A stretch of DNA of 39,811 bases, taken from positions 1-39,811 of the IMG/VR virus record IMGVR_UViG_3300045988_064194. The stretch is one strand, 5' to 3'. The notes under the pieces are model-generated. The model ran no database searches, had not been told where the DNA came from, and worked only from the letters and a program-made list of their open reading frames with translations. Position 1 is the first letter of the stretch. Each line of letters starts with the position of its first letter. A program made the position numbers and the translations under genes. Source of the DNA: a virus. Positions 1 to 39,811 of the stretch are shown here, piece after piece.

Positions 1-141
1 ATGTCCGTATGGGAAGCGTATGAGGGCTACACGCTGAACGCGACCGACGAATTCCAGAAGGGCGGTATCGAGGCCAGCGTCCAGAAGGGAATTGACCGGC
101 TCTACGAGAATGGCAAGATCACCGATGACTCGCTCCGCAAC
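1..141. repeat. Terminal overlap copy 1 (identical to 39671-39811)
   Basis: Compared base by base; all 141 nt are identical. Confidence 0.95.
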
Positions 142-2424
142 GCGGGCGAGCAGGAAGCGCTTTACCGCACATTCCAGGATAAGACCGTCCTGTCCGACGC
201 CGCGATCGGCGTCCGGAACGCGCTCAACAAGGCGCATATCGGCGACATTGGCGCGGGTGACATCATGCTCCCGTTTGCGCAGGTCCCGTCGAACCTCGGC
301 GCGCGGGCGATCGAGTATTCCCCTGCCGGGCTGCTCGTTTCCGCAGCAGATTTCATCAATATGCTTGATTCCGCGAAGAAGGGCAACCTGACTGCGGCCC
401 AGCAGGCAAAGGCGGTGCAGGGCGTAGGCCGCGCGCTGACCGGCTCCGGCATGATCGCCATTGCGGCGGCAGGCGCGCTGCGTGGCTGGCTGAAAGTCAC
501 CGGTGACGATGACGACAAGAACAAGGACGCGCTCGGCAAGACGCACGGCCTTGACGGCACGCAGCTCAATATCAGCGCGGCTCTGCGGGATCTGCGCGGG
601 GAAAGCACGCAATGGCAGGCGGGCGACCAGCTGCTTTCTATTGGCTTCCTCGACCCGCTCAACGCGCAGCTCACGACCGGCGCGCTTATTGCAGACGATA
701 TCCGCAGTGAGGCTGGCGTGACGGCCGGGCGTGTGCTCGGAAACTCGCTTTCCGGCGCGCTGCAGTCTGTTTTGGACACGCCCGTTATGTCCACGTTCCA
801 GGACGTGGCGACGAACTATGAGTACAGCGGAGCCAGCACGCCGGGTGGGAAGATGATGGACGCGGCGCAGAAATACGCGGCGAACCAGCTTTCCAGCGTC
901 ATTCCGAATTCGCTGCGCGGTATTGCGCAGGGTCTCGACGACACGGAGCGGAATGCCTATTCCTCGGATAACGTCTGGCAGCAGGCAGTCGACAACGCGA
1001 AAGCGTCCATCCCAGGCCTGCGGGAGACGCTTCCGGCGAAGACGGACGTCTGGGGAAATCCGGTCAAGAACGAAGGCGGCATCCGCAACTTCATGAACCG
1101 GAATATCAATCCCGGCAACGTCACAACGTACAAGCCGGACGCGGTATCCTCCGAGATCGAGAAAATCAGCGAGGCGACGAACACCTCTCTGTATCCTGAC
1201 CGCACTGCCCCGCGCTCTTTGAAGGTCGACGGCGAGGCTGTCAGCCTGACGTTCGAGCAGCGCAGCATGTATCAGAAAGCCTACGGCGATGCGTATTCCG
1301 CCGCCGTGACCTCGCTCATGAACGACAAGAACTACAAGGCCATGCCGGACAGCATGAAAGCCGAGATCCTGCAGCAGGCGAAGGACACCGCTACAGAGCA
1401 GGCGCGGGACAGCCTCGGCATCGGGTATGAAGTGAAATCCTCTGCACAGAAGATCTTGGAGAAGTCCGGCGCGGAGCGCAACAACGCGCTGATCTCCGCC
1501 GCCGTCAAAGCGCAGCACTATTTGTCTCCGGAGACGCAGAAACAGCTTTCTGACGTCGACCGGCAGTTCGGCGGCGCTGACTATGTCGGCTTGTCTGACG
1601 AGCTTTTCAACGCTGCGAAGGAAAAGGCGAACACCTACTTCTCGGCGGTCGAGGCTGCCAAGTATGGCGGCGAGCTGAACGAGACGCAGAAGGAGCTTGC
1701 GGACAAGGACAGCAAGGAGATGGCGCGGTACTTTATGGAGCAGGCTATCGAATCCCGCTATACCGACACGAACAAGAGCGGGACGAAAGCCGACGAGTAT
1801 CTGAAAGCATACCGGCATGGCGAGCTCAACGATGCAATGGCGCTGGCTGTTCTGAGCGACAAGGAGGTCATGGCATACGATCGCTTCGGCCGGAGCGCGA
1901 AGGTAACGCCGGAAATGGCGCTGCAGGCGGCAAACGCTCATGCCGGGATGAAGGATGTCAAGGACGAGGACGGCAAGGTCACAAGCAGCGCGCAGGACCA
2001 GTTCGACGCATGGCTCGACAAACAGAGCTGGACGGACGATCAGAAATCTGCTGTCCGCATGGGCTTCTACTCTGACAGTGTCAAGACCTACAGCTATCTG
2101 GCAGACCAGCTCCACAAAGGGAACATCAACACGGCGGCGGCAAAGAGTGAGCTTTCCGCGACGTACCAGTCCGGTTGGACGCATAACGTCAAGGATACCG
2201 GCGCTAAGATGGTTGATTACGTGGACGCCATTGTTGAGTATGAAGACCGGCCAAGCAAAGAGGAACTCGACGATGCAGGGTATAGCTATGTATGGCAGTG
2301 GTTCTGTGACTATCTCAATACTACGGACCTGACCAGAGAACAGAAGTATGCTATGGCGATCAGCATCAAGAAGAACGACTATGGCGACGGCACAAAGCAG
2401 AAGATCTGGAACAGGCTCAGATAA
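1..2424 (+). CDS. C-terminal 807 aa of the giant (about 2200 aa) virion/ejection-type polyvalent protein; same gene as 35492..39811
   Basis: The frame is open from nt 1, and the same frame has been open since ATG 35492 at the other window end. TAA at 2422-2424. Gly/Ala-rich hydrophobic helix GSGMIAIAAAGALRG. Confidence 0.8.
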   Translation: MSVWEAYEGYTLNATDEFQKGGIEASVQKGIDRLYENGKITDDSLRNAGEQEALYRTFQDKTVLSDAAIGVRNALNKAHIGDIGAGDIMLPFAQVPSNLGARAIEYSPAGLLVSAADFINMLDSAKKGNLTAAQQAKAVQGVGRALTGSGMIAIAAAGALRGWLKVTGDDDDKNKDALGKTHGLDGTQLNISAALRDLRGESTQWQAGDQLLSIGFLDPLNAQLTTGALIADDIRSEAGVTAGRVLGNSLSGALQSVLDTPVMSTFQDVATNYEYSGASTPGGKMMDAAQKYAANQLSSVIPNSLRGIAQGLDDTERNAYSSDNVWQQAVDNAKASIPGLRETLPAKTDVWGNPVKNEGGIRNFMNRNINPGNVTTYKPDAVSSEIEKISEATNTSLYPDRTAPRSLKVDGEAVSLTFEQRSMYQKAYGDAYSAAVTSLMNDKNYKAMPDSMKAEILQQAKDTATEQARDSLGIGYEVKSSAQKILEKSGAERNNALISAAVKAQHYLSPETQKQLSDVDRQFGGADYVGLSDELFNAAKEKANTYFSAVEAAKYGGELNETQKELADKDSKEMARYFMEQAIESRYTDTNKSGTKADEYLKAYRHGELNDAMALAVLSDKEVMAYDRFGRSAKVTPEMALQAANAHAGMKDVKDEDGKVTSSAQDQFDAWLDKQSWTDDQKSAVRMGFYSDSVKTYSYLADQLHKGNINTAAAKSELSATYQSGWTHNVKDTGAKMVDYVDAIVEYEDRPSKEELDDAGYSYVWQWFCDYLNTTDLTREQKYAMAISIKKNDYGDGTKQKIWNRLR

Positions 2425-6810: not shown

Positions 6811-7821
6811 CTACGCAAAGAAGTTTTTGATCTGCTGAACAGAATCGGAGATATCCGCCTGCGCAATGTGTGTATATATTTTTCGCATGGTTCCGTAGTC
6901 CGACCAGCCCCCAAGCTGCATTGTGACTTTTTCAGATATCCCTAATTTATAGGCGAGGGAGCAGAAAGAATGCCTTAGTCCGTGTGTCCCGACTTCCGGC
7001 AGGTTCGCTTTTCTGCATATTTTATTTGCGGAGGCTCGGATGCTATTCGGGTTTGCGATTACGACAAATTCACTGGTTCTTTCTGCGTCAGAAAGCAGCT
7101 GAAATAGTCTTGGTATCATGATCGGGATCGTCCGCCGGGAAGAACGGTTTTTGTTCGTTGGCTTGTTTACCAGCTTGTTATTTTCGTCAAACAAGGTTGC
7201 CCCCCGAACTGTTATGGACTGCTTTTTCAAATCAACGTTTTCCCAACGTAAGCCTAAAATCTCGGATACGCGCAAAGAGTGCAGAGCAAGCAAAAATGCA
7301 ATTTCGTATTTGCTTCCTTCTGCCTCTTTGAGGAATACCGGAATTTCTTCTGCGGACAAAAATGCATGCTCGTCGGACTGAACAGCGGGAAGCGATACGT
7401 CATAAGATACGCTGTATTGTTTAAGAGCTGGGCGTATCAGTGCCCATGTTTCGCGAATGGTCTTCGGGCTGCATTTTTCGGTGTTGATCGCCTGCTGGAT
7501 GGCGCTTACAGAAAGTTTAGATAAAGGAATGTCCATGATGGACTGTAGATAACAACGCTGCTTGATTCTGTGCCCACGCACAGAAGCTGGGGAGAGCACC
7601 CCGCTTTTCAGGGTCAGATACTCGTCAATCGCTTTTCGTATTGTGATTTCCGGTTTTTCGTTTTCTTCGGCAAGAAGCCCTATTTTGTACTCCAAAGCAG
7701 CCTGTTCCGCTTCCCGTTTTGTAGGGGCTGTGAAAGACTTCTTTTGCCCATTCACCATCACGCGGCAGCGGAAGGAGCCGGAGGGGAGTTTTTCAGCTTC
7801 GGGGACTTTGACTTTCTTCAT
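6811..7821 (-). CDS. int: Tyrosine recombinase / phage integrase (336 aa)
   Basis: C-terminal catalytic pattern ...LRVSEILGLRWENV...HGLRHSFCSLAY...GGWSDYGTMRKIYTHI. ATG 7821 preceded by AAGGAGAA (the track start at 7869 is further upstream). Confidence 0.9.
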   Translation of the reverse strand: MKKVKVPEAEKLPSGSFRCRVMVNGQKKSFTAPTKREAEQAALEYKIGLLAEENEKPEITIRKAIDEYLTLKSGVLSPASVRGHRIKQRCYLQSIMDIPLSKLSVSAIQQAINTEKCSPKTIRETWALIRPALKQYSVSYDVSLPAVQSDEHAFLSAEEIPVFLKEAEGSKYEIAFLLALHSLRVSEILGLRWENVDLKKQSITVRGATLFDENNKLVNKPTNKNRSSRRTIPIMIPRLFQLLSDAERTSEFVVIANPNSIRASANKICRKANLPEVGTHGLRHSFCSLAYKLGISEKVTMQLGGWSDYGTMRKIYTHIAQADISDSVQQIKNFFA

Positions 7822-8365
7822 GTTGGTTCTCCTTGCGGATGATGCGGAGGATGGTGATACCGGCAGCAACGGCGGAGGCGACGATCAGGCCGATGAAGGC
7901 CCAAGCGGCGCCGGACAGTCTGCCGCCGCGGATGATACCGGCGTCAGTGATCTGGGAGTCGATCATGAGATAGACAATGAGCGACAGCGCCAGAATGATG
8001 CAGAAGAAGACGAGCACATAGCAGATCGTGTGCGTGGATCTGATCTGTGCTTTCTGCGCCGCGTTGGCTGTGACGAGCTTGGCATTTTCGAGTTCGAGCT
8101 GGTGGTTGCGTTCCTGCAGCTCGCTTGGGCTGTCGGCAGGTTTCTCCAGCCCGCAGAGAGCATCAAGCGATAGCCCAAGCGTATCAGCGATTGCAGCTTC
8201 GTTGTACAACAGTGGGTTTGCCTGCACACCAGAGTTGACGCGGCTCACATTCGAGTACGGTACACCAGACCTTTCCGAAAGCGCACTGATCGTCATTCCG
8301 ACTTCGTTTCTTCTTCGCTTTATTTTTTCTGAATAGGCTTCAAAAAACGGTGCAAGCTTCTCCAT
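7793..8365 (-). CDS. XRE-family HTH protein with a coiled coil and two C-terminal TM helices (membrane-anchored regulator)
   Basis: HTH MTISALSERSGVPYSNVSRVNSG. TM segments ICYVLVFFCIILALSLIVYLMI and AAWAFIGLIVASAVAAGITIL. The 3' end overlaps the int start by 29 nt. The start may instead be TTG 8374, which lies 8 nt after GGAGG. Confidence 0.7.
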   Translation of the reverse strand: MEKLAPFFEAYSEKIKRRRNEVGMTISALSERSGVPYSNVSRVNSGVQANPLLYNEAAIADTLGLSLDALCGLEKPADSPSELQERNHQLELENAKLVTANAAQKAQIRSTHTICYVLVFFCIILALSLIVYLMIDSQITDAGIIRGGRLSGAAWAFIGLIVASAVAAGITILRIIRKENQHEESQSPRS

Positions 8366-9976: not shown

Positions 9977-10108
9977 ATGACACGTGAGGAAGCGCAGAAG
10001 TACATAGCCAAGCTGACCTACGAGGAAAAGAAGAAGCTTAACGATTTGCTAACAGCCCTTGCACAAAGGCGTCAACCTTCTGCATCTCCTCAGGCGTCAA
10101 AGAAGTAA
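9977..10108 (+). CDS. 43-aa ORF downstream of the LexA-controlled promoter; candidate micro-antirepressor (may alternatively be a non-coding antisense RNA)
   Basis: AAAGGAAAGGAG RBS 8 nt before the ATG. MTREEAQKYIAKLTYEEKKKLNDLLTALAQRRQPSASPQASKK. Convergently overlaps the last 71 nt of the repressor gene. Too short for the ORF track. Confidence 0.4.
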   Translation: MTREEAQKYIAKLTYEEKKKLNDLLTALAQRRQPSASPQASKK

Positions 10109-10358
10109 GCTTCGAAACAAGTTCATCGTCCAAAGCTCTCTCGTCCGTAGGGACGAGGGGGCTTTTTTCGTCCCCAAACAGGAGGTATTGCGAGTCAACC
10201 CCAAAATAGTCTGCAATTCTCTGCAAGACGGCCGGGCGAGGCGTCGAGCCGTTTTTCCATAGGACAACATTTGAAGAAGAACAGCCTAGTTTTTGCGCAA
10301 CCGGAGTCGGCTTCTCGCCGTTTCGCTCACACAGCATTTTGAAATTGTCATAAAACAT
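10038..10358 (-). CDS. CI-like XRE-family repressor (106 aa, no S24 peptidase domain)
   Basis: HTH PTPVAQKLGCSSSNVVLWKNGSTPRPAVLQRIADYFGV. GGAGG RBS 8 nt upstream. Divergent from the early operon. Confidence 0.8.
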   Translation of the reverse strand: MFYDNFKMLCERNGEKPTPVAQKLGCSSSNVVLWKNGSTPRPAVLQRIADYFGVDSQYLLFGDEKSPLVPTDERALDDELVSKLTSLTPEEMQKVDAFVQGLLANR

Positions 10359-20199: not shown

Positions 20200-20982
20200 T
20201 CATAAAAAATGAATATGGATTTCTCCGCTTCTGATTTTTGTGTTGAGAAACGCGGCCTCTGGATTCGGGGCGTTCTCAATGCTTTTCTTGCATAAATAAA
20301 GTACGATCTGCAAAGCCTGTCTGTGCGCGGCAAGCTCGGCGTTTCTCAACTCCAAAGTTGTGATCATGGCTCTGCGGATCTCTGGATTATCATCCGATAG
20401 ATTTTTCAGCGCTTCGTTTACCGTATGAGATAAGCTCGAACGAACCGTTTTTTTTCCAAGATGGATTGGGATGCCGATGGTTTTGCCGGTTTCCTTGAGA
20501 TACAGCAGCCGCAGCTCGTGGTCGCCGCTATTTACATCATCCTCAAGATGCACAAACACACCGTGGCACGGAGAATCAATATACCGAAAGCCGTCAGCGA
20601 ATTGCACATAAAAAGATCGGTACGGGATATGGTACAGCGCCTTGCTATCGATCTCAAACTCCTCATCTTCTTGTGCAAACAATCGTTCCTGCAAAGAACG
20701 GCCAACGATAAACACATCCTTGTTTTCAATCCATGGTGCAAGGGCGGCGATCTCTTGCGTTGCCTTTGTGGCGGCAGAAATGTTTTCGTATGTGCCAGGA
20801 GAATCGCCCATCGCAATCGCCATTGCCGCGGACATTGGTGCATAGCACCATTGATTCCATCTCGGAAGCCCGTTCTTGCCGTTCATTTCATGGAACAGTT
20901 TCATTTTCTCCCAGGCATCAGGGTATTCTTCTGTTACTCTCTGCAACAGAGCAAGCGGTGGATATGATGGATCAATTCGCAT
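20200..20982 (-). CDS. Hypothetical protein (260 aa); island gene C
   Basis: GGAGGAG RBS. The start overlaps the gene B stop by 11 nt. No motif recognised. Confidence 0.65.
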   Translation of the reverse strand: MRIDPSYPPLALLQRVTEEYPDAWEKMKLFHEMNGKNGLPRWNQWCYAPMSAAMAIAMGDSPGTYENISAATKATQEIAALAPWIENKDVFIVGRSLQERLFAQEDEEFEIDSKALYHIPYRSFYVQFADGFRYIDSPCHGVFVHLEDDVNSGDHELRLLYLKETGKTIGIPIHLGKKTVRSSLSHTVNEALKNLSDDNPEIRRAMITTLELRNAELAAHRQALQIVLYLCKKSIENAPNPEAAFLNTKIRSGEIHIHFL

Positions 20983-29343: not shown

Positions 29344-31037
29344 AAGAGAAAATGACGCCGGAAAAGGCGTACCGCAGATATGACCGGGGCGTACAGGTCA
29401 ACACGCAGCTGAATTTGTACGACACGGTGCAGAAAAACGAAAACTTTTTTATCGGCAAGCAGTGGGAGGGCGTGGAGAGTAACGGCCTGCCGACGCCGGT
29501 CTTTAACTTCCTCAAGCGCGTCGCGCTGTTCCAGATTGCGACGATCTCGAGCGACAACCTCTCCATGCAGGCTTCGCCGCTCGGCTCGACCAGTATGTAT
29601 TCGCTCGGCGATCTTGAGAAGGTCGCCGACGTTATGAATAAGCAGTTTGCGGCTATTTTTGAGCGGAACAAGGTTGTGACGTTGACGCGCCAGTTCATGC
29701 GCAACGCGGCGGTCGACGGCGACGGTGCGACCTACACCTACTTTGACCCGGACATCGAGACCGGGCAGGAGGCGAAGGGCGACATCGTCACCGAGATCAT
29801 CGAGAACACGCGCGTGATCTTCGGCAACCCGAACGACCGGCGCGTGCAGACGCAGCCCTATATCATCATCCCCCGCCGCCTCATGGTGGACGAGGTAAAG
29901 CGCCTTGCCAAGCGCAACGGCGTCAAGAAAGACGATATCGACCGCATCCGCCCGGACACGGAAGACTACAACAACCAGATGGATACCCTGCAGGATAAAC
30001 TCTGCACGCTCATCGTCTATCTCTGGAAGGACGACGAGACCGGCACCATCCACAGCTTCCAGTGTACGAAGGACGTGGAGATCGAGAAGGAGAAGGACAC
30101 GGGCCTGAAGCTCTACCCGATCACGTGGATGCCGTGGGACTACGTGCAGGACTGCTACCACGGACAGGCGCTCATTGCCGAGCTGATCCCGAACCAGATC
30201 TTCGTCAATAAGCTGTTCGCCATGTCGATGCTCTCGCTCATGACCACGGCGTTCCCGAAGATCGTCTACGATAAGACGCGCGTGCCGCGCTGGGACAGCC
30301 GCGTCGGCGCGGCCATCGGCATCAACGGCGGCGACGTCAACAACGTGGCGAAAATTTTGGACCCGGCGACGATCTCCCCGCAGGTCTCGCAGTTCATCGA
30401 CTCCGCCATCAACTACACGCAGAACTTCATGGGCGCTTCTGACGCGGCCCTCGGCGATACCCGGCCGGACAACACGTCCGCCATCGTGGCCCTGCAGCGC
30501 GCGTCCAACGCGCCTTTGGAGCTGGTGAAGCTCAACATGTACGAATCCATCGAAGACCTCGGCCGCATCTACCTTGACCACATGCGCGTGTACTACGGCA
30601 CGCGGTATGTGCAGGTGAAGATGCTGACGAAGGACCAGCTCAATTCGCAGCCGCTCGGCATGACGCTGCCGGAGCAGGATTTCAATACGCCCTTCGATTT
30701 CGACATTCTCAACCGCATCCCGCTTTCTTTGAAGCTCGACGTCGGCGCGTCGGCCTACTGGTCGGAGATCACGACGGTGCAGACGCTCGACAACCTGCTC
30801 ATGCAGGGCAAGATCGAGCTGGTCGACTACCTCGAGCGTATCCCGGAGGGCTATGTCTCCAAGCGGCAGGAGCTGATCGACAAGCTGAAAGGCAATCAGG
30901 CCATGTCGCAGATGAATCAGGGCGCGACGAGCGGGAACCTCATGCCCGAGGTCCCGCAGGCCGGGCAGATCCCGGTCAACGGCGGCAGCGGCTACGGAGA
31001 GCTGCAAAGGGCGCTCAACGAAACGGGGGTGGCATAA
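29340..31037 (+). CDS. Portal protein (565 aa)
   Basis: NENFFIGKQWEGV...GLPTPVFNFLKRV near the N-terminus and ...GASDAALGDTRPDNTSAIVALQRAS... are portal-like. Size and context fit. Confidence 0.7.
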   Translation: MKEKMTPEKAYRRYDRGVQVNTQLNLYDTVQKNENFFIGKQWEGVESNGLPTPVFNFLKRVALFQIATISSDNLSMQASPLGSTSMYSLGDLEKVADVMNKQFAAIFERNKVVTLTRQFMRNAAVDGDGATYTYFDPDIETGQEAKGDIVTEIIENTRVIFGNPNDRRVQTQPYIIIPRRLMVDEVKRLAKRNGVKKDDIDRIRPDTEDYNNQMDTLQDKLCTLIVYLWKDDETGTIHSFQCTKDVEIEKEKDTGLKLYPITWMPWDYVQDCYHGQALIAELIPNQIFVNKLFAMSMLSLMTTAFPKIVYDKTRVPRWDSRVGAAIGINGGDVNNVAKILDPATISPQVSQFIDSAINYTQNFMGASDAALGDTRPDNTSAIVALQRASNAPLELVKLNMYESIEDLGRIYLDHMRVYYGTRYVQVKMLTKDQLNSQPLGMTLPEQDFNTPFDFDILNRIPLSLKLDVGASAYWSEITTVQTLDNLLMQGKIELVDYLERIPEGYVSKRQELIDKLKGNQAMSQMNQGATSGNLMPEVPQAGQIPVNGGSGYGELQRALNETGVA

Positions 31038-31769
31038 ATGAGCATTCCGAAACTCGACACCGATCTCAGCATCATCCAGAAGCTGGACGACTACCCAAAC
31101 GACATCGGCGGGCTATCCGCCGCGCAGCTGAAAGCGAAGTTCGACGAGGGCGTGCTTACTCTGCAGACGTATATCAATACCGTTCTCATCCCGGCACTGA
31201 TCGCTTCGAACGTTTCGTTTACGCCGACGGCAGCAGTCAATGCCGAGACCGTTCAGGCCGCGATTGAAAACGTGCAGGCGCAGCTTGCGGGCATTTCCGC
31301 CGGTACCATCCCGAACAATACCGTCGGCATGGAGAAGCTGACCAAGACCGTGCAGAAAGCCATCGCCTCCGGCGGCGGCGCGGCTGAGGCGGTCTCGGCG
31401 CTTTCCAAGACCGTCGCGCAGAACGTGGCGGCGACGAACGAAAACACCACGGCCATTGCCGCCATCAACACCGCGAACGTGAACCGCGACGCAGAGATCG
31501 CCAAGATCGGCAATAAGGCGGAAAAATCGCAGGGCGCGACGTTTGTTCTGACCGCGGCGGGCTGGACGGAGAACAAGCAGACCGTGGCCATCAACATCGG
31601 CAGCGGGCGCAACGACGCCGTCGGCCTCGACACGTCGGCGACGCTGGCGCAGTGGCAGGAGGCTGCGAAGTGCGGCGTCAAGGTCTACAGCGCGAACGAG
31701 GAGGGCATCACCTTCTCCTGCGAGACCGTGCCGACGCTCGACCTGCCGTGCGCGTATATCTTGATGTAA
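31038..31769 (+). CDS. Fibre-like virion protein (243 aa)
   Basis: N-terminus LDTDLSIIQKLDDYPNDIGGLSAAQLKAKFDEGVLTLQTYINTVL is typical of Firmicute phage fibre N-termini. Ala-rich coiled stalk and a beta-rich C-terminus. Confidence 0.6.
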   Translation: MSIPKLDTDLSIIQKLDDYPNDIGGLSAAQLKAKFDEGVLTLQTYINTVLIPALIASNVSFTPTAAVNAETVQAAIENVQAQLAGISAGTIPNNTVGMEKLTKTVQKAIASGGGAAEAVSALSKTVAQNVAATNENTTAIAAINTANVNRDAEIAKIGNKAEKSQGATFVLTAAGWTENKQTVAINIGSGRNDAVGLDTSATLAQWQEAAKCGVKVYSANEEGITFSCETVPTLDLPCAYILM

Positions 31770-31781
31770 GGAGGGCGAACC

Positions 31782-31967
31782 ATGCTCGATTTATTCCCCA
31801 AGCTGATCAGCCCGGACGAGACGGCCATCAACACCAAGCTTGGCCGCACCACCGCCGTCACCGAGGACGACACGAACTACACCTCGTACATGGCGCGCGG
31901 CCAATCTCTGAATTCTGCTGAGACGACGCCCACGAAGAACGGCCAGATCGCCTGGCAGTACGAATAA
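31782..31967 (+). CDS. 61-aa protein homologous to the C-terminal about 50 aa of the collagen-like fibre
   Basis: GGAGGG RBS 6 nt before the ATG. ...[53 protein letters not shown] aligns with the fibre end ...[51 protein letters not shown]. Confidence 0.5.
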   Translation: MLDLFPKLISPDETAINTKLGRTTAVTEDDTNYTSYMARGQSLNSAETTPTKNGQIAWQYE

Positions 31968-31980
31968 GGAGGGACGGCAC

Positions 31981-32439
31981 ATGGCACATATGGCACGAGC
32001 GGCGGGGACGGATTACGCCGTCGCAGGCGGCAAGACTCTCATCGACGGCACAGCGTACAGCGTCGTCGCTACGCGAGAGGTGGAGAAGACCATTGTCATT
32101 ACTGGCAAACTGCCGTCCACTGTGAGTGGCAGCTTCACGGTTAATGATGCACGCTTAGATTACGACAAATATGAAGTCGTGCAAGCGCTGTACGTAACTG
32201 CCGGATATTACAATATGACTGGGGTGACAGTCTTAATTGTGTATGAGAAAGATTATCAGAAAATGAATGGAATAGTTTCTGGCGGAAAATACAGCGGCAT
32301 CTCATCTAAAGATAGCCCAAGTGTAACATCAATGTTTAATTTTTCACAAAACGGAAAAGCGGTGCTCCCAGCGTTCCCATCTGCAAATTTACTTGTTGAG
32401 GGTAGCATATACACCATCGTCTTGGAGGCCAAAACATGA
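31981..32439 (+). CDS. Tandem paralogue 1 (152 aa) of a virion-module family
   Basis: GGAGG RBS. N-terminus MAHMARAAGTDYAVAGGKTLIDGTAYSVVATREV is shared with paralogue 3. AT-rich C-terminal part. Confidence 0.6.
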   Translation: MAHMARAAGTDYAVAGGKTLIDGTAYSVVATREVEKTIVITGKLPSTVSGSFTVNDARLDYDKYEVVQALYVTAGYYNMTGVTVLIVYEKDYQKMNGIVSGGKYSGISSKDSPSVTSMFNFSQNGKAVLPAFPSANLLVEGSIYTIVLEAKT

Positions 32440-32957
32440 GTCACAAAACCCTGATATCCGGCACGGCGTATGAGGTCGTGGGCGGGGCGCAGATGATAGA
32501 TGGAACGAAATTCCAAATGGGGGGGGGTAAAACCCTTCTGGGCGGGACGGCATTCGATATCCTGTTTGCCAAAGGATCGTACACGATTGATATGTCGTGG
32601 AAGTACCAAATTAGTCAATACGACAGCGTTAAAGACATTCAAATGCCTACGCTCACTTACCCGAGCACGGAGGGGAGCGTATCATTTGGTTCGAAAACGC
32701 AATACGTGTATCTAAACAGAAACTCGATGACAATCCAGATGACACCTGGCATTTTGCAATTACAGGTCACAGGAAACTGCAATACCATTACTGGCGATGG
32801 TGTCACTGATTATCATGCGGCGAGTGACAACAAATCAATGATTTTTACTATACAAGCGACAAAAGAAGGAACCTATATACCTAATTTCAACATGATAAAT
32901 CCGTGCTTGGGCGATTTAAGCGCGTATGTGAAGGTTTTATCTTTCGAGCCAGCATAA
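32436..32957 (+). CDS. Tandem paralogue 2 (173 aa); contains a G9 tract
   Basis: ATGA overlap with paralogue 1. N-terminus ISGTAYEVVGGAQMIDGTKFQMGGGKTLLGGTAFDI repeats the family motif. Confidence 0.6.
   Translation: MSHKTLISGTAYEVVGGAQMIDGTKFQMGGGKTLLGGTAFDILFAKGSYTIDMSWKYQISQYDSVKDIQMPTLTYPSTEGSVSFGSKTQYVYLNRNSMTIQMTPGILQLQVTGNCNTITGDGVTDYHAASDNKSMIFTIQATKEGTYIPNFNMINPCLGDLSAYVKVLSFEPA
32519..32527 (+). repeat. Homopolymeric G9 tract inside paralogue 2 (codons 28-31, M-G-G-G)
   Basis: caaATGGGGGGGGGTAAAacc. A +1 G gives an immediate TAA, and a -1 G shifts into the junk frame listed as track ORF 32500..32715. Confidence 0.95.
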
Positions 32958-32970
32958 AGGAGGAATCAAC

Positions 32971-33438
32971 ATGGCACACGTTGCACTTTTAAATGGTACG
33001 AATTACCAAGTGGGGGGGGGTAAAGTCATGATCGACGGCACAGTCTACAGCATCATGGCCACCCGCGAGGTGAACGACACGGTTGTTGTTGAGATGAACC
33101 CGACGGCGATCAGCAGGGAAGTGATGACGCTCGAAAATGCTTCGTTCGACTGGACGAAATACGATCTTGCTGAATACTTTGTTTTCGGAGAACAATCTTT
33201 ACATTTCATAGCCGTAAAAACATCCATAGAAAATTCGATTAGGTTTAACAAAATGTACACCACCACTCCTATTAGCCAGGGATATGAACTTCTCGCTTTT
33301 AAAATAACAGAAAACGCGACTGTAAACGGGAAGCTGACGATAAACGCCAAATATTCACTGGGATCAAGTTACATGGGGTGGCCGATTAGCGACAAATCAA
33401 AGCTGGTTTGCACAGTCATACTGAAAAGAAAGGGATGA
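32971..33438 (+). CDS. Tandem paralogue 3 (155 aa); contains a G9 tract
   Basis: AGGAGGAA RBS. N-terminus MAHVALLNGTNYQVGGGKVMIDGTVYSIMATREV. Confidence 0.6.
   Translation: MAHVALLNGTNYQVGGGKVMIDGTVYSIMATREVNDTVVVEMNPTAISREVMTLENASFDWTKYDLAEYFVFGEQSLHFIAVKTSIENSIRFNKMYTTTPISQGYELLAFKITENATVNGKLTINAKYSLGSSYMGWPISDKSKLVCTVILKRKG
33012..33020 (+). repeat. Homopolymeric G9 tract inside paralogue 3 (codons 14-17, V-G-G-G)
   Basis: caaGTGGGGGGGGGTAAAgtcatga. A +1 G gives an immediate TAA, and a -1 G gives TGA four codons later. Confidence 0.95.
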
Positions 33439-33442
33439 CAAT

Positions 33443-33808
33443 ATGACATACTTCAAAACCAATGGAACCGAATACCCGGCGAGCATTGCCGGGCGGATGG
33501 CGGATCGCGACTGGGACGGGCGCGCGTCCAAGTCCGTCACGCTGACCATGACCCACGCTGCCGCCGTGCAGCTGTTTGTGGACGGACTGAGCTGGTCCAT
33601 CGTCCAGCGTGATACTGTCCCCGTCTACGGCACCGACGGAAACCCCACCGGCGAGACCGAGGAGCAGGTGCAGGAATGGGACAACGCCGACTACTGCGTC
33701 GCCGGTCCCATCACCGACAACCGCGACGGCACGTGCACCTGCAAGATGGGCAAAAAAACGGCCAGCGACGTGCTGGCGGAACTGGAGGCGGCATATGACA
33801 GAGGCTAA
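33443..33808 (+). CDS. Hypothetical virion-module protein (121 aa)
   Basis: RBS AGAAAGGGA; coding composition; overlaps the next gene by 14 nt. Confidence 0.55.
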   Translation: MTYFKTNGTEYPASIAGRMADRDWDGRASKSVTLTMTHAAAVQLFVDGLSWSIVQRDTVPVYGTDGNPTGETEEQVQEWDNADYCVAGPITDNRDGTCTCKMGKKTASDVLAELEAAYDRG

Positions 33809-34121
33809 ACTGGCACAGGTAAAGAAAGCAATTACGGACGGCAAGCTCGTGCAGGCCGCAGGCGGCATCACGGAGGACGTGACGCAATCGGACAAGCTGG
33901 GCTATGACTGGCGGAATACCTACGTCAACAAGATCCTCGTCCGGCAGGTGTACGTCGAGCAGGACGTAAAACAGGGCACGGCTGACAATCCGATCGCGTG
34001 GGAACCCAGAATGGCCCTCATCCAGAACGCCTACTACACGCACAACGGCGAGATCAAGGTCTGGATGGGCGCGGCAGGCGCGAGTGCCAATTGGTCGAGC
34101 AGCGATTTTGTTTCCAACTGA
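33795..34121 (+). CDS. Hypothetical virion-module protein (108 aa) with a CBM5/12-like aromatic pattern
   Basis: GGAGG RBS before ATG 33795. ...NPIAWEPRMALIQNAYYTHNGEIKVWMGAAGASANW. Confidence 0.5.
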   Translation: MTEAKLAQVKKAITDGKLVQAAGGITEDVTQSDKLGYDWRNTYVNKILVRQVYVEQDVKQGTADNPIAWEPRMALIQNAYYTHNGEIKVWMGAAGASANWSSSDFVSN

Positions 34122-34138
34122 GTTTGTGAGGTGAGCAC

Positions 34139-35476
34139 ATGCCGACAACCGAAGAGCTGCTGAAGCAAGTCTACAAGCAGCAGACGCAGAGCCAGCAGGG
34201 GCAGAACGGCAATATCGCCACGACCAGCGCCGCCTCCGCCGCAAACCCGCCCGCCAGCACCGAGGCCCCCGCCGCCGGAGCCGGTACGGAAAACACGCCG
34301 CAGGCCCCGGCCAACGGCGAATCCACCGCCCCTGCGGCGGGCGCCACCGGCACGGGCGGCACCGGCCCGACAGGCGAGGCCAGCGGTAAATCCCTTTGGG
34401 ACCGATACCGCGAGTCTCTGAGCGGTCTGGGCGACTACAAGACCCCGACGGCAAACAGCCAGGAAGAGCTGATCCGGAAGATGTACGAATCCAACCTGGA
34501 TTCGAACAAATCCCAGCTCGAGAGCGACTACAACCAGAATCTTTCCGACCTCGGCGCGGAGGAAAGCAAGCTCGGGCAGATCTATTATGAGCAGCAGCGG
34601 CAGGCGCAGGCGGAGTCCGACCGCAACCGGCAGGCGTTTCAGGAGTACGCGAACGCGCGCGGCCTGAACTCCGGCACGGGCGGGCAGGCAGAGCTTGCGC
34701 AGAGCAATCAGCTGTCGGCGAACCTCAACGCCCTTCGCCAGTCTGAGGCAGAGAAGCGGGCAGAGGTCGAGCGGCAAAGGCAGCTGCTCGGCCAGCAGTA
34801 CCAGCAGGCCATCCAGAAAGCGCAGGCCGACAACGACCTGAATCTGGCGAAGGCCCTGTACGAGGAGGCCGTGCGCGTCGACGAGTCCATCAACTCCGCC
34901 GCGCAGGCCGACGCAGACCGGGCGCTGCAGATCTTCAACATGCTCAACAATACCGCCCTCTCCGCTGCGGGCGCGTATGCCTCCAAATCCGGCGACATGT
35001 CCCTCTACGAAAAGCTTCTCGCCGGTGACAGCACCTCGGAGCTCGAAGACCTCTACAACAAAGCCCAGCAGATCGTATCCTCCGGCGGGTATTACTCCGG
35101 CGGCGGTGGCGGAGGAAGCTCCGGCACGTACAAGAAGGCTACCAGTGACGAAATGGAGTGGGCGCAGTATTACATCGACATCATCCGCGCCGCTGGCAGC
35201 GTCGATAACGTCAAGGATTACCTCAACACGAATTACAAGAGCTACGGTATCCCGTATCAGTCTGTCAGTAAGACGACAGAAAGCATGGCTGAACGTGCAA
35301 AAAAATATTCGACGAACGAATATCAGATCGGCTCTGAGAAGGGCAGGGATATTGCCAGCAGCCTCGGCGTTGGCAATACGTACCGGGCTGCGGACAATTC
35401 CGTGTGGCGCAAATCCTCGAACGGCAATATCTACGTCACAAAGGACGGCGTGACCATGAAAGCAAACATCGTATAA
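34139..35476 (+). CDS. Q/A-rich coiled-coil virion protein (445 aa; candidate internal/ejection protein)
   Basis: Low-complexity N-terminus, a long Q-rich coiled coil and a G-rich linker. The C-terminal 34-aa motif recurs twice in the next gene. Confidence 0.6.
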   Translation: MPTTEELLKQVYKQQTQSQQGQNGNIATTSAASAANPPASTEAPAAGAGTENTPQAPANGESTAPAAGATGTGGTGPTGEASGKSLWDRYRESLSGLGDYKTPTANSQEELIRKMYESNLDSNKSQLESDYNQNLSDLGAEESKLGQIYYEQQRQAQAESDRNRQAFQEYANARGLNSGTGGQAELAQSNQLSANLNALRQSEAEKRAEVERQRQLLGQQYQQAIQKAQADNDLNLAKALYEEAVRVDESINSAAQADADRALQIFNMLNNTALSAAGAYASKSGDMSLYEKLLAGDSTSELEDLYNKAQQIVSSGGYYSGGGGGGSSGTYKKATSDEMEWAQYYIDIIRAAGSVDNVKDYLNTNYKSYGIPYQSVSKTTESMAERAKKYSTNEYQIGSEKGRDIASSLGVGNTYRAADNSVWRKSSNGNIYVTKDGVTMKANIV

Positions 35477-35491
35477 CGGAGGCACTTGCCA

Positions 35492-38400
35492 ATGGCAGAT
35501 TATTATATCAATTCCGACTACGGCAAACAGCTTGCGGGCAGCCTGAAAGCGGGCGATATGGCGGAAGCCTCCGACGGCTCGACGTGGCGGAAGGAAGCCG
35601 ACGGCAGCGTCACGGTATGGAAGAACGGCCAGACCATGACCGGCAGGGTGGGCGTGTCCGCGCCCGCCGTGTCGGAAGCGCCGTCGTCCATCGCCTCCCC
35701 GACGGTCGAGACGCCGACGCTCGACGCCGCGACCGGCGGCAGCTCGCAGCAGCTCACCGCCGCAGATTATACCGGCAGCGCGCAGGAACAGCGAGACCAG
35801 GAGCAGGCGCAGGCCCGCCTTGCCTCTGAAAAGGCAAAGGCCGCGACCGAGAAGGTCACGGCCGGTCTCGACCAGTCTTCCAGCGACGAGCTTTTGAATC
35901 AGGCCATCCAGCAGGCGTCCACCCCGGAGTACAAGATCAGCTCCGCGCAGGGCGCATTGCTCGCTGATGAGCTGCGCATGGCGGGCGATATGGCGGAAGC
36001 CTCGGACGGCTCCACATGGCGGCGCGAGGCCGACGGCAGTATCTCCGTCCGCAAAGGTGACAGGACCTACAAGGCAAATATCGACCGCGCGGCAGCGAAG
36101 CAGGACCCGCAGTGGGCAATCCTGACCGCCCCGGCCCCCGCCGCGGCGGAGACCGGCAGCGGGAAGAAATCTTCCGGGAAATCCTCTTCCGGCAGCGCTT
36201 CTTCCGGCGGCTCTGGTACATACACATTCCCGGCTGCCTCCACAGGCACGCAGAAGACGCCGACGGCCACTGCCACCGGCACCGACCGCGCGTCCCTGCG
36301 CAAGCAGGCCGCGACGGCACAGAAGGAAATGGGCGACCTCGCCCGGCAGATCTCCGTCGCGAAGATCCGCGGCAAGGACACGTCCGCCCTGCAGGCAAAG
36401 TACAACGAGGCCAAAGCCCGGTACGATGCGGCGAACACGCAGATCCAAGCCCCGCAGCAGCTTTCGACCTCCGGCGCGCGGCAGGAGCAATTCAGCCAGC
36501 GGCAGACGCTGATGGAGCTGGCGACGCAGCAGGCGGCGGAGCGGAAGGACGCATGGAAGAGTCTGCCGACCGTGCGGGATTCGGAGCGCTTTTCCGATAT
36601 CGACAATGTGACCACCGGCCGGATGCGCGGTGCAGAACAGCAGCAGATCGCCGGAGCTGTCAAGGAGCTGCAGAAGGACGCATGGCGGAGCCTGCCGACG
36701 GTACAGGATTCCGGACGCTTCAGCATCCCGTCTCAGACGGACAGCCTCATGCAGCAAGCGATTGCGCAGCGGCAGAGCGCAGCCCAGCCGCAGACCGACA
36801 AGGGGATCGGCGGAAAGCTTTTCACCATGCTTGGCGCAGGCCTCGGGCAGTTCAACGCTTCTATTGCCAACTTTGCCGACGCCGCAGCGACGGCAGTCGA
36901 AACAGTAGAAGGTTATTTAAACGGCGGGTTTACAAAGGATGGGAAGTTTGTAAAAGGAGATTCGGCGTTCACAAGTTCCCTTTTGCAGCCGATCCATGAT
37001 TGGGCAAAGTACACTCAGAGCACGTCCGATTCGCTGAACGAACGCTCCGCAGCAAACTGGAGCGATACGAAAGCGGGCAGCGTTGCAAACACGATCGGAA
37101 CCGGTGTCATTGCAGCGCTGCCGCAGGCTGCGCTTGCGCTTTTGACGCTCGGCACTTCGAGCGCAGGAACGCTGACGCAGGCCAGCTCCGGCCTTGCAGG
37201 CAGCATCGAAACCGTTATGCGGCGGATCTCCAGCGACCCGTCGTATTGGCTTTCATTTATGCAGGAAACCGGCGGTAACTTTGCAGAGGCAAAGGGGGCC
37301 GGAGCGACAGACGAGCAGGCCATTCTGGCTTCTACGATAGCTGGCCTTGCAAATGCCGCGATCGAAGTCGGCGGCGGTCTGGAAAACAACAACTGGATGA
37401 ACGACGGCACGCTTTCTGCGCTCAGTAAGGCGAAAAATCTGATCAAGGGCGCGATCGAAGAGGGCGGCGAAGAACTCATTCAGAACCCGATCAGCCGCGC
37501 CATGCAGAAGCTTGTCTATGACGGAGATCGGGAGTGGCTGTCACTCGACAATACGGCGCAGGGCCGGGACGCTGTTTTCAATCCGTATCAGTCAGCCGAG
37601 GAATTTGCAACCGGCGCAGCAGTCGGCGGCATCCTCGGTGCGGGGAACTTTGCGCTGAATCGCGCGCTCGGTTCGCGCAGCCAGAATCAGGCGCAGAACA
37701 CCCAGCCGACACAAGATGAACTGCTCGACGCAGCCATGCAGGCAGCGAACCGCGGTGAGACGCTTACAGGCCCTGTACAGGCCGCGAACCAGACCACCCA
37801 GCAAACGACGCAGGGCACAGCGGAACGTGGCACAGAGGGCGTTATAACAGGCAATGAGGCGTCTGCATTGGACGAGGCCATGCGCAGCACGTTTACTGAG
37901 GCACTGAGCGGCATTTCTTCAAATGTTGCAACGAATAAGCCGCAGAACGTGAAAAATCTGCTCAATGCAACGAAAGAGCAGATCACAAGATTTATTCAGA
38001 ATGCGTTCAATAAGCAGAACCAGTTCCAGTATCTAAAGATCTCCGACGTTTCGCCGGAGCTGGCAGAAACGCTGCGTGCAGCTGGAATCAATGTTGATGG
38101 GTATGCGCATGCCCTCCGCGACAACGATATCCGGCACGTGGAAAGCTCGCACGGCTCGCAGTCGAACGACAAGTACAAGGTCACGGCCGATATGCTGGGG
38201 AACGCGCAGAATGTCATTGACAATTACGATGTTCTGTACCGCGGATACGACACAAAGAACGGGAATCCCACTATCGCATATGAAAAACGCATGGGGACCC
38301 GGACATTTTATGTCGAGGAAGTGCTTGATGATGGAGTGCTCGGAACGAAGCAGATGCTTGTTACGGGTGAGGACAGCAAACCTAGCTTCCTGAAAAAAAT

Positions 38401-39811
38401 GCAAAAAATAGCTAGTGTTTCCGACGATACCGATGTGCCCGCTCGAAGCGGATCAACAGGCCAAAGCCCCCCCGGCAAACACGTCCCAGACGCCCCGTAT
38501 AACACTAGCTACAATCCCACTGTAGCACAACCGGGGAATCCTGTCAACCAGAATGTTTCGGCAAATGATATGGGCGCGATGCGCAGCCAGTTCGAGTCTG
38601 TGCCGAAGCAGGCGCAGACGCAGAGCAATACCATCAATAGCATGGAAACCGGCTGGGACGTGCCGGAGGCACAGCGCACGCCCATCATGTATGATACCAT
38701 TTCCGAGGCAAAGAGCCTTGATAATGCCCGGCTGCGGCTGGCGCAGGACTACGCCGGGGAAATGGAAGAGCTGCGCGGGAAGCACAACTGGAGCGGTGAA
38801 GAGGTCGACATGGGTATGACGATCCTCGACAACTACCGCCGGGCAGCAGAGCAGACCGGCGACTGGACGGAATATTCCAACTGGCGCAAAGAGGTCTCCG
38901 CGCACGGCACGGCAGCCGGTCAGGCGCTGCAGGCGTATGCCAAATACTCTAGGCAGACGGGCGGCGGTATCGTTGCGGACGCTTCGGCGGCGCTGGAGCG
39001 CGCGGCGAAGAAGACCAACAAGGCCGAGATCATGAACCGTGTCAGCGCGCTTGCACAGCAGTACGACGCAGCGATCGGCACCGGGCAGGAGAACGCGAAG
39101 GTCAACGTCAACGATCTGGTCGACATCATCAAGAGCGCCAGCACGGCCCGCCAGACCGGTACGCTCATCGGCAACAAGACCCCGCCCATTGTCAACTGGG
39201 CCATGAACCGCATTGCGAACTACGCCCGGGCGGAAGCGCAGTCCGGCGGCGGGGAAAATCTCGACTTCCTCCGGACGTTCGCGGCAGACAGCATCTACAA
39301 TATCGCCGCTGATACGCGGGCGGTATCCGCTGGGGAGCAGGTCAAGACGGTCCGACGCATGGGCATGCTGTCCAAAGTGTCGACAGTCATGCGGAACCTT
39401 GTTTCGAACAACGTTTTCGATCCCATTGACAGTATCGCACGAAACGTCTCTGTCCCGCTCGACATGCTGGTATCTACGATCACCGGCACGCGCAGCGTCG
39501 CGGGCGATGCGTCGTGGTTCTCGGCGGCGAAGCGCAAGGGGTCTATGGACGGACTCGCACGGGCGTGTATGGAAGTCGGCCTCGACGTCGACGCTTCCGG
39601 CACGGCCGGAAAGTACGAAAACACGTCCAACCGGACCTTCAAAATGTCCGGCGGCGTCTTCTCTAAGCTCATGTCCGTATGGGAAGCGTATGAGGGCTAC
39701 ACGCTGAACGCGACCGACGAATTCCAGAAGGGCGGTATCGAGGCCAGCGTCCAGAAGGGAATTGACCGGCTCTACGAGAATGGCAAGATCACCGATGACT
39801 CGCTCCGCAAC
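35492..39811 (+). CDS. N-terminal 1440 aa of the giant (about 2200 aa) polyvalent-type virion/ejection protein; open at the window end and continues at nt 1..2424
   Basis: GGAGG RBS 8 nt before ATG 35492. My manual translation found no stop up to 39811. The ORF track lists no frame-2 ORF here, which is consistent with an ORF lacking a stop. The last 47 codons equal the first 47 codons of ORF 1..2424. Confidence 0.8.
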   Translation, partial: MADYYINSDYGKQLAGSLKAGDMAEASDGSTWRKEADGSVTVWKNGQTMTGRVGVSAPAVSEAPSSIASPTVETPTLDAATGGSSQQLTAADYTGSAQEQRDQEQAQARLASEKAKAATEKVTAGLDQSSSDELLNQAIQQASTPEYKISSAQGALLADELRMAGDMAEASDGSTWRREADGSISVRKGDRTYKANIDRAAAKQDPQWAILTAPAPAAAETGSGKKSSGKSSSGSASSGGSGTYTFPAASTGTQKTPTATATGTDRASLRKQAATAQKEMGDLARQISVAKIRGKDTSALQAKYNEAKARYDAANTQIQAPQQLSTSGARQEQFSQRQTLMELATQQAAERKDAWKSLPTVRDSERFSDIDNVTTGRMRGAEQQQIAGAVKELQKDAWRSLPTVQDSGRFSIPSQTDSLMQQAIAQRQSAAQPQTDKGIGGKLFTMLGAGLGQFNASIANFADAAATAVETVEGYLNGGFTKDGKFVKGDSAFTSSLLQPIHDWAKYTQSTSDSLNERSAANWSDTKAGSVANTIGTGVIAALPQAALALLTLGTSSAGTLTQASSGLAGSIETVMRRISSDPSYWLSFMQETGGNFAEAKGAGATDEQAILASTIAGLANAAIEVGGGLENNNWMNDGTLSALSKAKNLIKGAIEEGGEELIQNPISRAMQKLVYDGDREWLSLDNTAQGRDAVFNPYQSAEEFATGAAVGGILGAGNFALNRALGSRSQNQAQNTQPTQDELLDAAMQAANRGETLTGPVQAANQTTQQTTQGTAERGTEGVITGNEASALDEAMRSTFTEALSGISSNVATNKPQNVKNLLNATKEQITRFIQNAFNKQNQFQYLKISDVSPELAETLRAAGINVDGYAHALRDNDIRHVESSHGSQSNDKYKVTADMLGNAQNVIDNYDVLYRGYDTKNGNPTIAYEKRMGTRTFYVEEVLDDGVLGTKQMLVTGEDSKPSFLKKMQKIASVSDDTDVPARSGSTGQSPPGKHVPDAPYNTSYNPTVAQPGNPVNQNVSANDMGAMRSQFESVPKQAQTQSNTINSMETGWDVPEAQRTPIMYDTISEAKSLDNARLRLAQDYAGEMEELRGKHNWSGEEVDMGMTILDNYRRAAEQTGDWTEYSNWRKEVSAHGTAAGQALQAYAKYSRQTGGGIVADASAALERAAKKTNKAEIMNRVSALAQQYDAAIGTGQENAKVNVNDLVDIIKSASTARQTGTLIGNKTPPIVNWAMNRIANYARAEAQSGGGENLDFLRTFAADSIYNIAADTRAVSAGEQVKTVRRMGMLSKVSTVMRNLVSNNVFDPIDSIARNVSVPLDMLVSTITGTRSVAGDASWFSAAKRKGSMDGLARACMEVGLDVDASGTAGKYENTSNRTFKMSGGVFSKLMSVWEAYEGYTLNATDEFQKGGIEASVQKGIDRLYENGKITDDSLRN
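39671..39811. repeat. Terminal overlap copy 2 (identical to 1-141)
   Basis: Exact 141-nt identity with the window start. Confidence 0.95.

Follow-up and report, generated by a model that had tools for sequence, protein, structure and literature searches.

Length-variable poly-G tracts as probable phase-variation switches in a tandem gene cassette of a temperate gut phage

Two tandem genes in the late operon of a temperate human-gut phage each carry a run of nine G residues (G9) that probably serves as a genetic switch. The genome in question is IMG/VR record IMGVR_UViG_3300045988_064194, analysed here as a stretch of 39,811 nucleotides (nt) and referred to throughout as the window. It contains a cassette of three paralogous genes, par1, par2 and par3, with one G9 run in par2, one in par3 and none in par1. 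We consider it likely, with good confidence, that the two runs are contingency loci, that is, hypermutable simple-sequence repeats (SSRs) that switch their genes by slipped-strand mispairing. At the DNA level, near-identical alleles from related phages are polymorphic in tract length, the changes in length move the gene into and out of frame, out-of-frame (OFF) alleles retain intact open reading frames (ORFs), and the tract is kept in five types of N-terminus. The rate of switching and its reversibility within one population are what we infer from these patterns.

As a preliminary description of this DNA had claimed from reading by eye, the two G9 runs are the longest homopolymers in the window; they are the sole ones of at least nine bases in 39,811 nt, and the next G run is G6. 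The next-longest homopolymers of any base are T8 at 20448-20455 and C7 at 38467-38473. Runs of G or C are counted as hypermutable SSRs from about 7 bases within an ORF or promoter, a length that both runs exceed. Both lie within the first 31 codons of their genes and are directly followed by TAAA, the full context being ATG GGG GGG GGT AAA in par2 (32516-32531, codons 28-32) and GTG GGG GGG GGT AAA in par3 (33010-33024, codons 14-18). The equivalent motif of par1 is written GGC GGC AAG, again as first described. The ATG of par2, at 32436, overlaps the stop codon of par1 (ATGA).

The frame effects foreseen in the preliminary description are found in relatives. One additional G was expected to create an immediate TAA, and relatives with G10 indeed encode peptides of only 31 amino acids (aa) for par2 (L028, L017, L039 and L042) and 17 aa for par3 (L001, L002, L011 and L028). 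Loss of one G was expected to end par3 early and to throw par2 into a junk frame; relatives with G8 (L021, L023, L027 and L030) encode a 19-aa par3 peptide, ‘MAH..QVGGVKS*’, and a junk par2 ORF of 86-92 aa. In the mechanism we propose, slipped-strand mispairing during replication of phage or prophage DNA would add or remove G residues, and tract length would set the reading frame, such that G9 gives the full-length product (ON), G10 an immediate TAA and G8 a short out-of-frame peptide (OFF). The two genes would toggle independently because each has its own Shine-Dalgarno (SD) sequence and its own tract. The window would represent the ON/ON state, with the tract-less upstream paralogue always expressed. 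The four expression states counted at the outset are thus correct for the two switchable genes of this window; up to five genes are switchable in relatives.

Tract length was compared across loci from several sources. Loci L001-L019 were confirmed by tblastn and come from IMG/VR, JGI/ENA metagenomes and GTDB genomes. Contig L020 encodes the exact 121-aa neighbour protein, contigs L021-L030 the exact par1 protein, and contigs L034-L043 an exact copy of the 61-aa upstream protein; this last set has the same backbone as the window. L031 and L032 are two contigs found via variant proteins. Two additional pattern scans of IMG/VR yielded one new contig. A paralogue was scored as tract-bearing if it had a run of at least six G residues at the homologous Gly-Gly-Gly codons, and as ON if this was in frame with a start preceded by an SD sequence. 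The resulting 37 non-redundant loci hold 96 tract-bearing paralogues, with lengths of G6 (2), G7 (20), G8 (24), G9 (42), G10 (6) and G11 (2). Tract length is thus not invariant among relatives, and orthologues keep a pure G tract in place of mixed Gly codons, so that the comparative test set out in the preliminary description comes out in favour of a switch. By frame, 37 of the 96 are ON and 59 (61%) are OFF.

Length varies within a constant immediate context. Tracts of the par2 type, with the flanks ...CCAAAT-Gn-TAAAAC, are found with n = 8, 9, 10 and 11, and those of the par3 type, with the flanks ...CCAAGT-Gn-TAAAGT, with n = 7, 8, 9 and 10. When alleles were paired by their 300-nt flanks, 84 pairs had at most 3 mismatches; tract length differs in 49 of them, including 17 pairs with no flank mismatch at all. 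Alignments of about 130-175 nt round each tract contain no further insertion or deletion (indel). Among the closest relatives, the par2/par3 lengths are G9/G9 in L020, as in the window, and G11/G9 in L034, and both genes are OFF in L012, L021 and L023 (G8/G8) and in L028 (G10/G10). In some alleles, point changes break up the G run (GTT-G8/9, GTGT-G8, ATGT-G8 and ATGA-G8) and thereby shift the ON length or lock the state.

Six control homopolymers of 5-7 nt from the same region are invariant across 2-17 relatives each (no orthologue was found for two further controls). In the same comparison, the par2 tract varies in 6 of 15 relatives and the par3 tract in 4 of 5. Family genes that lack a tract are intact in all 34 cases; 11 of these were picked by exact protein match and are uninformative, which leaves 23 of 23. 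The OFF alleles do not appear to be decaying, because 58 of the 59 retain a downstream ORF of at least 101 codons (range 101-236) with no other indel, and this holds at pairwise synonymous divergence up to ∼0.3. The sole tract copy with a second lesion is the gene of L006 that starts at 6990 (6990-7120), in which a CGA-to-TGA change lies right after the tract. No tract length restores its long ORF, and this copy is probably a genuine pseudogene.

Base composition alone gives the G9 runs modest significance: there are two, compared with a mean of 0.23 in dinucleotide-preserving shuffles, and two or more occurred in 6 of 100 shuffles. Their position and conservation carry the real significance. 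As had been noted at first reading, glycine is mostly encoded by GGC (58% of Gly codons in the 25 other genes of the window, with GGG at 18%), and the six other peptide runs of at least three Gly residues in the window contain no GGG codon at all. This bias argues for selection of the G run itself. The homopolymer would be a derived feature of a subclade, because the three GGK repeats of a more distant relative in the family, from an Oribacterium genome, are written in mixed codons, without a tract. The cassette (window 31950-33450) is also an island of low G+C content (GC), at 39-47% compared with 60-66% in the late-operon flanks, and par1 has backbone-like GC in its first ∼100 nt only. The low GC suggests horizontal acquisition of the C-terminal domains, or heads, and their exchange among phages whose hosts differ in GC.

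The proposed switch also appears to leave a footprint in gene calls. Truncated or alternative-start products are called for 15 of 41 par3 homologue clusters and for 9 of 23 par2-body homologues, as is expected where the native start is out of frame. The forms called are ‘MIDGT...’ (136 aa) and ‘MVRITKWGGGK...’ for the par3 type, and ‘MERNSKWGGGK...’ and ‘MSW...’ (121 aa) for the par2 type; among the members listed for par3's own 90% cluster, the 136-aa form accounts for 7 of 15. The protein collection contains none of the exact OFF forms of the window's own alleles, and their ON forms only, on 6 contigs. A +1-frame ATG (xATGGxAC; 32500 and 32993) comes into frame with the gene body at G10 or G7. 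Chimeric calls such as ‘MERNSKWGGGK...’ and ‘MVRITKWGGGK...’ are annotation artefacts typical of the cassette family.

Cassettes of related phages share a common layout. In 10 of 10 relatives built on the window's backbone, the 61-aa gene is followed by a tract-less, intact gene and then by genes that carry tracts; par1, which occupies this first position in the window, is presumed to be expressed constitutively. N-termini at the first position are GC-rich and of at least two types, ‘MAHMARAAGTDYAVAGGK...’ and ‘MAHKTLISGTGYDVSGGRELIGGTGYAKKKGR...’, and the latter can be fused to the C-terminal domain of par2 (L010, L031 and L038). Tract-bearing genes have five types of N-terminus, each with its own ON length: 9 for MSHKTLIS, 9 for MAHxALLN, 9 for MANALVNG (8/11 after GTT), 8 for MGTHHILK and 6/9 for MSHKTIIA. 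The coding segment for the par2-type N-terminus is ∼99% identical across very different phage backbones. About 35 nt past the tract this identity ends, and the C-terminal domains that follow are of four or more unrelated kinds (142 aa, 112 aa, and 203-236 aa with DUF6273).

Hybrid genes in four contigs (L010 5466, L031 4001, L038 3696 and L032 1280) join a tract-less ‘...GYAKKKGR...’ N-terminus to the C-terminal domain of par2. Because of this arrangement, the same head could be either constitutive or switchable, depending on its N-terminal module. We considered and rejected a poly-A version of the switch in the ‘AKKKGR’ variant, which is encoded by GCG AAG AAG AAA GGC, contains no homopolymer and belongs to a tract-less first-position gene.

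The number of genes per cassette ranges from 1 to 6, of which up to five are switchable; in L002 all five are OFF. The cassette is widespread and found in unrelated phage backbones, and the exact par1 protein occurs in 169 blocks of the collection searched. The family itself is small, with 22 representative clusters among 1.84 billion proteins. A scan for promoters and terminators round the cassette gave counts not above those of shuffled sequence. Tentatively, we propose that the cassette is a mobile host-recognition module. It would consist of one constitutive mini-fibre gene and up to five paralogues, each built on an adaptor segment with an in-built poly-G switch, with heads swapped by recombination just downstream of the tract. 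Such a module might move between unrelated gut-phage backbones and yield up to 2^5 surface-head combinations from one genotype, and could represent the first contingency-locus system in phages of Gram-positive gut commensals.

The encoded proteins begin with two or three copies, depending on the family member, of a 14-residue repeat, GG(G)K-T-L-I/V-D/N-G-T-x-Y-x-I/V-x. In the repeat copy nearest to the head, the Gly turn is specified by the poly-G tract. AlphaFold2 models have overall predicted local distance difference test (pLDDT) scores of 63.5 for par3 and 72.4 for par2. The par2 model contains an all-beta C-terminal domain at residues 45-173 with a pLDDT of ∼88, and residues 1-43 score below 50. 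Monomer models that leave a repeat unfolded are typical of obligate trimers, and the low-confidence N-terminal repeat fits a fibrous segment that depends on oligomerization. Scans of par1-3 and their neighbours against Pfam, PHROGs and PADLOC found nothing above noise, and sequence searches of the Protein Data Bank with a par2 profile and with a three-repeat family member found nothing below E = 0.3. Foldseek entries for TNF-like heads, the sigma1 head, the Tuc2009 tripod and carbohydrate-binding modules, all with E above 0.1, were not used as evidence.

The cassette lies between the portal gene and the gene for a ∼2,250-aa polyvalent protein, in the morphogenesis module of the late operon. 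In other backbones it directly follows genes with Mtd_N (PF18454) that have tail-fibre or tail-spike PHROG matches; the 243-aa upstream protein of the window has no similarity to the Mtd_N protein of those backbones. A DUF6273 variant of par2-type alleles matches a Hoc-like head-decoration PHROG at 1e-8. From position, neighbours and architecture, we lean slightly towards the view that the products are appendages exposed on the virion and serve as receptor-binding mini-fibres or as decoration adhesins. They would be small and probably trimeric fibres on the virion surface, with the N-terminal repeat as shaft or anchor and interchangeable beta-sandwich heads that bind host or environmental ligands. 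A lysate, or a population of lysogens, would then be a mix of particles with different head combinations, a form of bet-hedging on adsorption or host range.

Several observations weigh against switching of virion proteins. The 84 allele pairs with near-identical flanks are phylogenetically non-independent, and the comparison sequences are all metagenome assemblies, with the variation seen between assemblies. AlphaFold2 yields no confident model of the N-terminal repeat, and the proteins are not identified by any match to a family, structure or fold; in three Foldseek searches, all matches had E above 1e-3 and a template modelling (TM) score below 0.4. Pairwise ratios of nonsynonymous to synonymous differences (pN/pS) in the C-terminal domains of the par2, par3 and MANALVNG types are 0.6-0.9, reaching 2.8-4.5 in the MANALVNG group with very few substitutions; they are high and equal in ON and OFF alleles, and so uninformative for selection on the latter. 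Such values would mean weak amino-acid constraint, compatible with either diversifying selection on a binding surface or relaxed selection. Finally, the ON fraction, 37 of 96 (39%), is near the 1/3 expected under unselected drift in length. This fraction and the pN/pS values would fit a mutational hotspot without an adaptive switch. The G runs would then result incidentally from the Gly-Gly-Gly-Lys motif of accessory genes under relaxed selection, and frameshifts would build up because these genes are dispensable and en route to loss. The extra nonsense change in L006, the fluctuating gene number and the existence of point interruptions in the tract (GT, TG and GA variants) are in line with that explanation as well. 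However, genes on the way to loss should not keep their ORFs in 58 of 59 OFF alleles at the divergence noted above, nor should pure GGG-GGG-GG persist in five diverged N-terminal types when GGG is so little used. Tract-less paralogues demonstrate that the motif needs no homopolymer, and the wide distribution of the cassette and its spread among backbones that are unrelated also speak against loss. We therefore regard a non-adaptive hotspot as improbable.

The frame might instead be restored during expression, by RNA-polymerase slippage, ribosomal frameshifting or re-initiation. Alleles that are OFF in the DNA would then go on making protein, and the tract would be a rheostat or a source of isoforms with different N-termini and no genetic switch. 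Long homopolymers are known sites of RNA-polymerase slippage, the +1-frame ATGs enter frame at G10 or G7, and par3 has an in-frame ATG (Met20) 5 nt past the +1 TAA, such that alternative products are conceivable. Programmed recoding sites are conserved in length, however, and here lengths run from G6 to G11 and in-frame and out-of-frame DNA alleles coexist. The alternative ATGs also lack an SD sequence, documented transcriptional slippage in bacteria involves mainly A/T runs, and the DNA polymorphism observed suffices to produce the pattern. Recoding thus seems to us a distinctly unlikely source of the variation. Least probable of all, and very unlikely indeed, is that the length differences are homopolymer errors of sequencing or assembly and that the real genomes are all in frame. 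The comparison sequences are short-read assemblies, some at 3-12x coverage by their contig names, which is where such errors might arise. Yet the lengths differ by up to 3-4 nt with 61% of alleles out of frame, the same lengths recur across independent samples and assemblers (SPAdes, MEGAHIT and Logan contigs), and the control homopolymers do not vary. Moreover, the ON length is specific to the type of gene (8 for MGTHHILK, 9 for par2 and par3), a distinction that errors would not respect. Slipped-strand switching accordingly remains our preferred explanation for the G9 runs.

Phage-encoded phase variation has been called ‘an exceptional case’ in a 2025 review (PMC11959909). The closest precedent is that of Campylobacter phages of the genus Fletchervirus, whose receptor-binding-protein genes carry hypermutable poly-G tracts (Sorensen et al. 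2021, Cell Rep 35:109214, as cited in PMC11959909 and PMC10579305). The likeness extends to intragenic poly-G that sets the frame, several tracts per genome and a proposed mixed phage population. Fletcherviruses, however, are lytic and of myovirus type, their Gram-negative host has poly-G switches of its own, and the receptor-binding function of the proteins is reported to have been demonstrated; here the phages are temperate, podovirus-like and associated with gut Clostridia, and a receptor-binding function is only proposed. The present tracts also differ from those of Fletchervirus in that they occupy the same homologous codon throughout a family of tandem paralogues, the first copy of which is tract-less. 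When par2 and par3 were compared by tblastn with 50,697 phage records, the sole matches were two unannotated gut contigs, and no Campylobacter phage was hit. Contingency loci have also been reported in T2 and T4, where deep sequencing revealed poly-A runs (for example agt bases 288-296) in genes of every functional class (preprint; Gomez, Barrick and Waters, bioRxiv 10.1101/2025.10.21.683753). There, too, phage genes undergo reversible frameshifts through homopolymer slippage, which the authors interpret as bet-hedging. Unlike in T2 and T4, the G6-G11 runs are concentrated at a conserved position in a single family of mobile genes, and the evidence for them comes solely from comparative metagenomics.

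Bacterial SSR contingency genes of Campylobacter, Neisseria and Haemophilus share with the cassette poly-G/C near the 5′ end of the ORF, ON/OFF control by frame, independently switching paralogues that generate combinatorial surface states, and OFF alleles that keep their ORFs. Those genes belong to surface-biosynthesis loci, whereas the present ones lie in a phage morphogenesis module. Such tracts are not known to be a general feature of Firmicutes. The Gin-inverted G segment of Mu, Cin of P1 and the Mtd diversity-generating retroelement (DGR) of BPP-1 are similar in that the phage itself encodes alternative receptor-binding ends on a constant N-terminal part, and genes with an Mtd_N domain physically adjoin the cassette in some backbones. 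The switch proposed here differs from these in acting by frameshift rather than by inversion or mutagenic retrohoming. No flanking inverted repeat and no invertase of the Gin/Cin kind was identified next to the cassette, and the genes are co-oriented, each with its own start and SD sequence. Nor was a direct repeat resembling a DGR template and variable repeat (TR/VR) found in 31000-39811; a screen for reverse transcriptase did not cover every ORF of the window.

Short trimeric fibres such as the adenovirus fibre, reovirus sigma1 and PRD1 P5 consist of a beta-spiral shaft and a globular head. The par proteins resemble them by analogy, with a Gly-containing repeat of alternating hydrophobic residues followed by what may be a compact beta-sandwich head; we treat this as a lead, and no significant sequence or fold match links the two.

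Judged by its sequence, the cassette works like the Fletchervirus and T2/T4 systems and is not homologous to them. Full-text literature searches found no such switch described in phages of Firmicutes or of gut commensals. The present case is set apart by the clade of its host and the lifestyle of the phage, by tracts that sit at the same homologous codon in members of a mobile tandem family, and by the layout that combines a constitutive gene with switchable ones. The record of such mutational switches in phages, which so far comprises just Campylobacter phages and, from a preprint, T-even coliphages, would thereby extend to a very prevalent temperate lineage of the human gut. Should the products serve in adsorption or adhesion, particles of a single genotype can vary in their host range or in their binding to mucosa. 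Gene callers would then make the systematic error of annotating these genes as fragments or as proteins with alternative starts, and metagenomic ‘strain’ comparisons should treat the tracts as switches.

Table 1. Features of the cassette and of the surrounding phage genome (window coordinates).
Feature	Position	Strand	Remarks
Conserved upstream neighbours, 243 aa and 61 aa	31038..31967	+	5′ boundary of cassette
par1, 152 aa	31981..32439	+	Tract-less, first cassette position, motif GCA GGC GGC AAG
SD sequence GGAGG for par2	32424..32428	+	Read from sequence
par2, 173 aa	32436..32957	+	N-terminal repeat region (residues 1-43), then predicted beta-sandwich C-terminal domain; ON
+1-frame ATG in conserved DGT codons of par2	32500..32502	+	No SD sequence
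par2 G9 tract	32519..32527	+	Codons 28-31, ATG GGG GGG GGT; ON length 9
TAAA directly 3′ of par2 tract	32528..32531	+	One G gained gives in-frame TAA
SD sequence AAGGAGG for par3	32957..32963	+	Read from sequence
par3, 155 aa	32971..33438	+	N-terminal repeat, then predicted all-beta C-terminal domain; ON
+1-frame ATG in conserved NGT codons of par3	32993..32995	+	No SD sequence
par3 G9 tract	33012..33020	+	Codons 14-17, GTG GGG GGG GGT; ON length 9; T-interrupted variants in relatives
TAAA directly 3′ of par3 tract	33021..33024	+	One G gained gives in-frame TAA
Conserved downstream neighbours, 121 aa and 108 aa	33443..34121	+	3′ boundary of cassette in window's backbone
Collagen-like tail fibre	2726
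Endolysin	3983
Tyrosine integrase	6811..7869	-
SLH-domain protein, 417 aa	8579..9832	-	Between integrase and repressor-like gene
Helix-turn-helix (HTH) repressor-like protein	10038..10358	-
ERF recombinase	12443
TerL	23344
Major capsid protein (MCP)	26161
P22-type portal	29340
Genes of 243 aa and 61 aa, cassette, then genes of 121, 108 and 445 aa	After portal
Giant ORF	From 35477 off window end		Presumably continues as 1..2424; ∼2,250 aa in all

The preliminary description had assigned the window to a temperate phage of Firmicutes, and the gene content bears this out. The genome encodes a tyrosine integrase, an HTH repressor-like protein, an ERF recombinase and an SLH-domain protein, the last of which indicates a Firmicute host; relatives lie on contigs of 100-178 kb, and one comes from a ‘Clostridiales bacterium’ metagenome-assembled genome. 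The SLH-domain protein is a candidate for lysogenic conversion or for a cell-wall-anchored protein. The lineage is very prevalent in human-gut assemblies, where the exact 61-aa neighbour occurs in 643 blocks, the portal cluster has 824 members and one MCP variant is present on 715 contigs. Comparison with cultured phages by blastn gave a 74-nt match only. The nearest cultured portal, with 29% identity, is that of the Bacillus megaterium podophage Page, the gene order of which is not informative.

The window looks like a complete, circularly permuted genome that was cut inside the polyvalent-protein gene. An 807-aa ORF starts at base 1 of the window. At the position of the giant ORF, relatives encode proteins of 2,090-2,255 aa with a PBECR3 domain. 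Within this ORF of the window, a 68-nt direct repeat (35549-35616 and 35981-36048, 84% identity, 432 nt apart) appears to indicate an internal domain duplication, and a second repeat pair lies at 36541-36591 and 36670-36720.

A different length-variable homopolymer occurs ∼2-4 kb upstream of the cassettes of three relatives. Right after the TGA stop of a gene, L007 has C9 (2435-2443), L004 has C7 (4544-4550) and L017 has C8 (2486-2493). The poly-C run is the 5′ side of the stem in a perfect hairpin, CCCCCGGA-GAAA-TCCGGGGG, and its variation in length may modulate a terminator-like structure.

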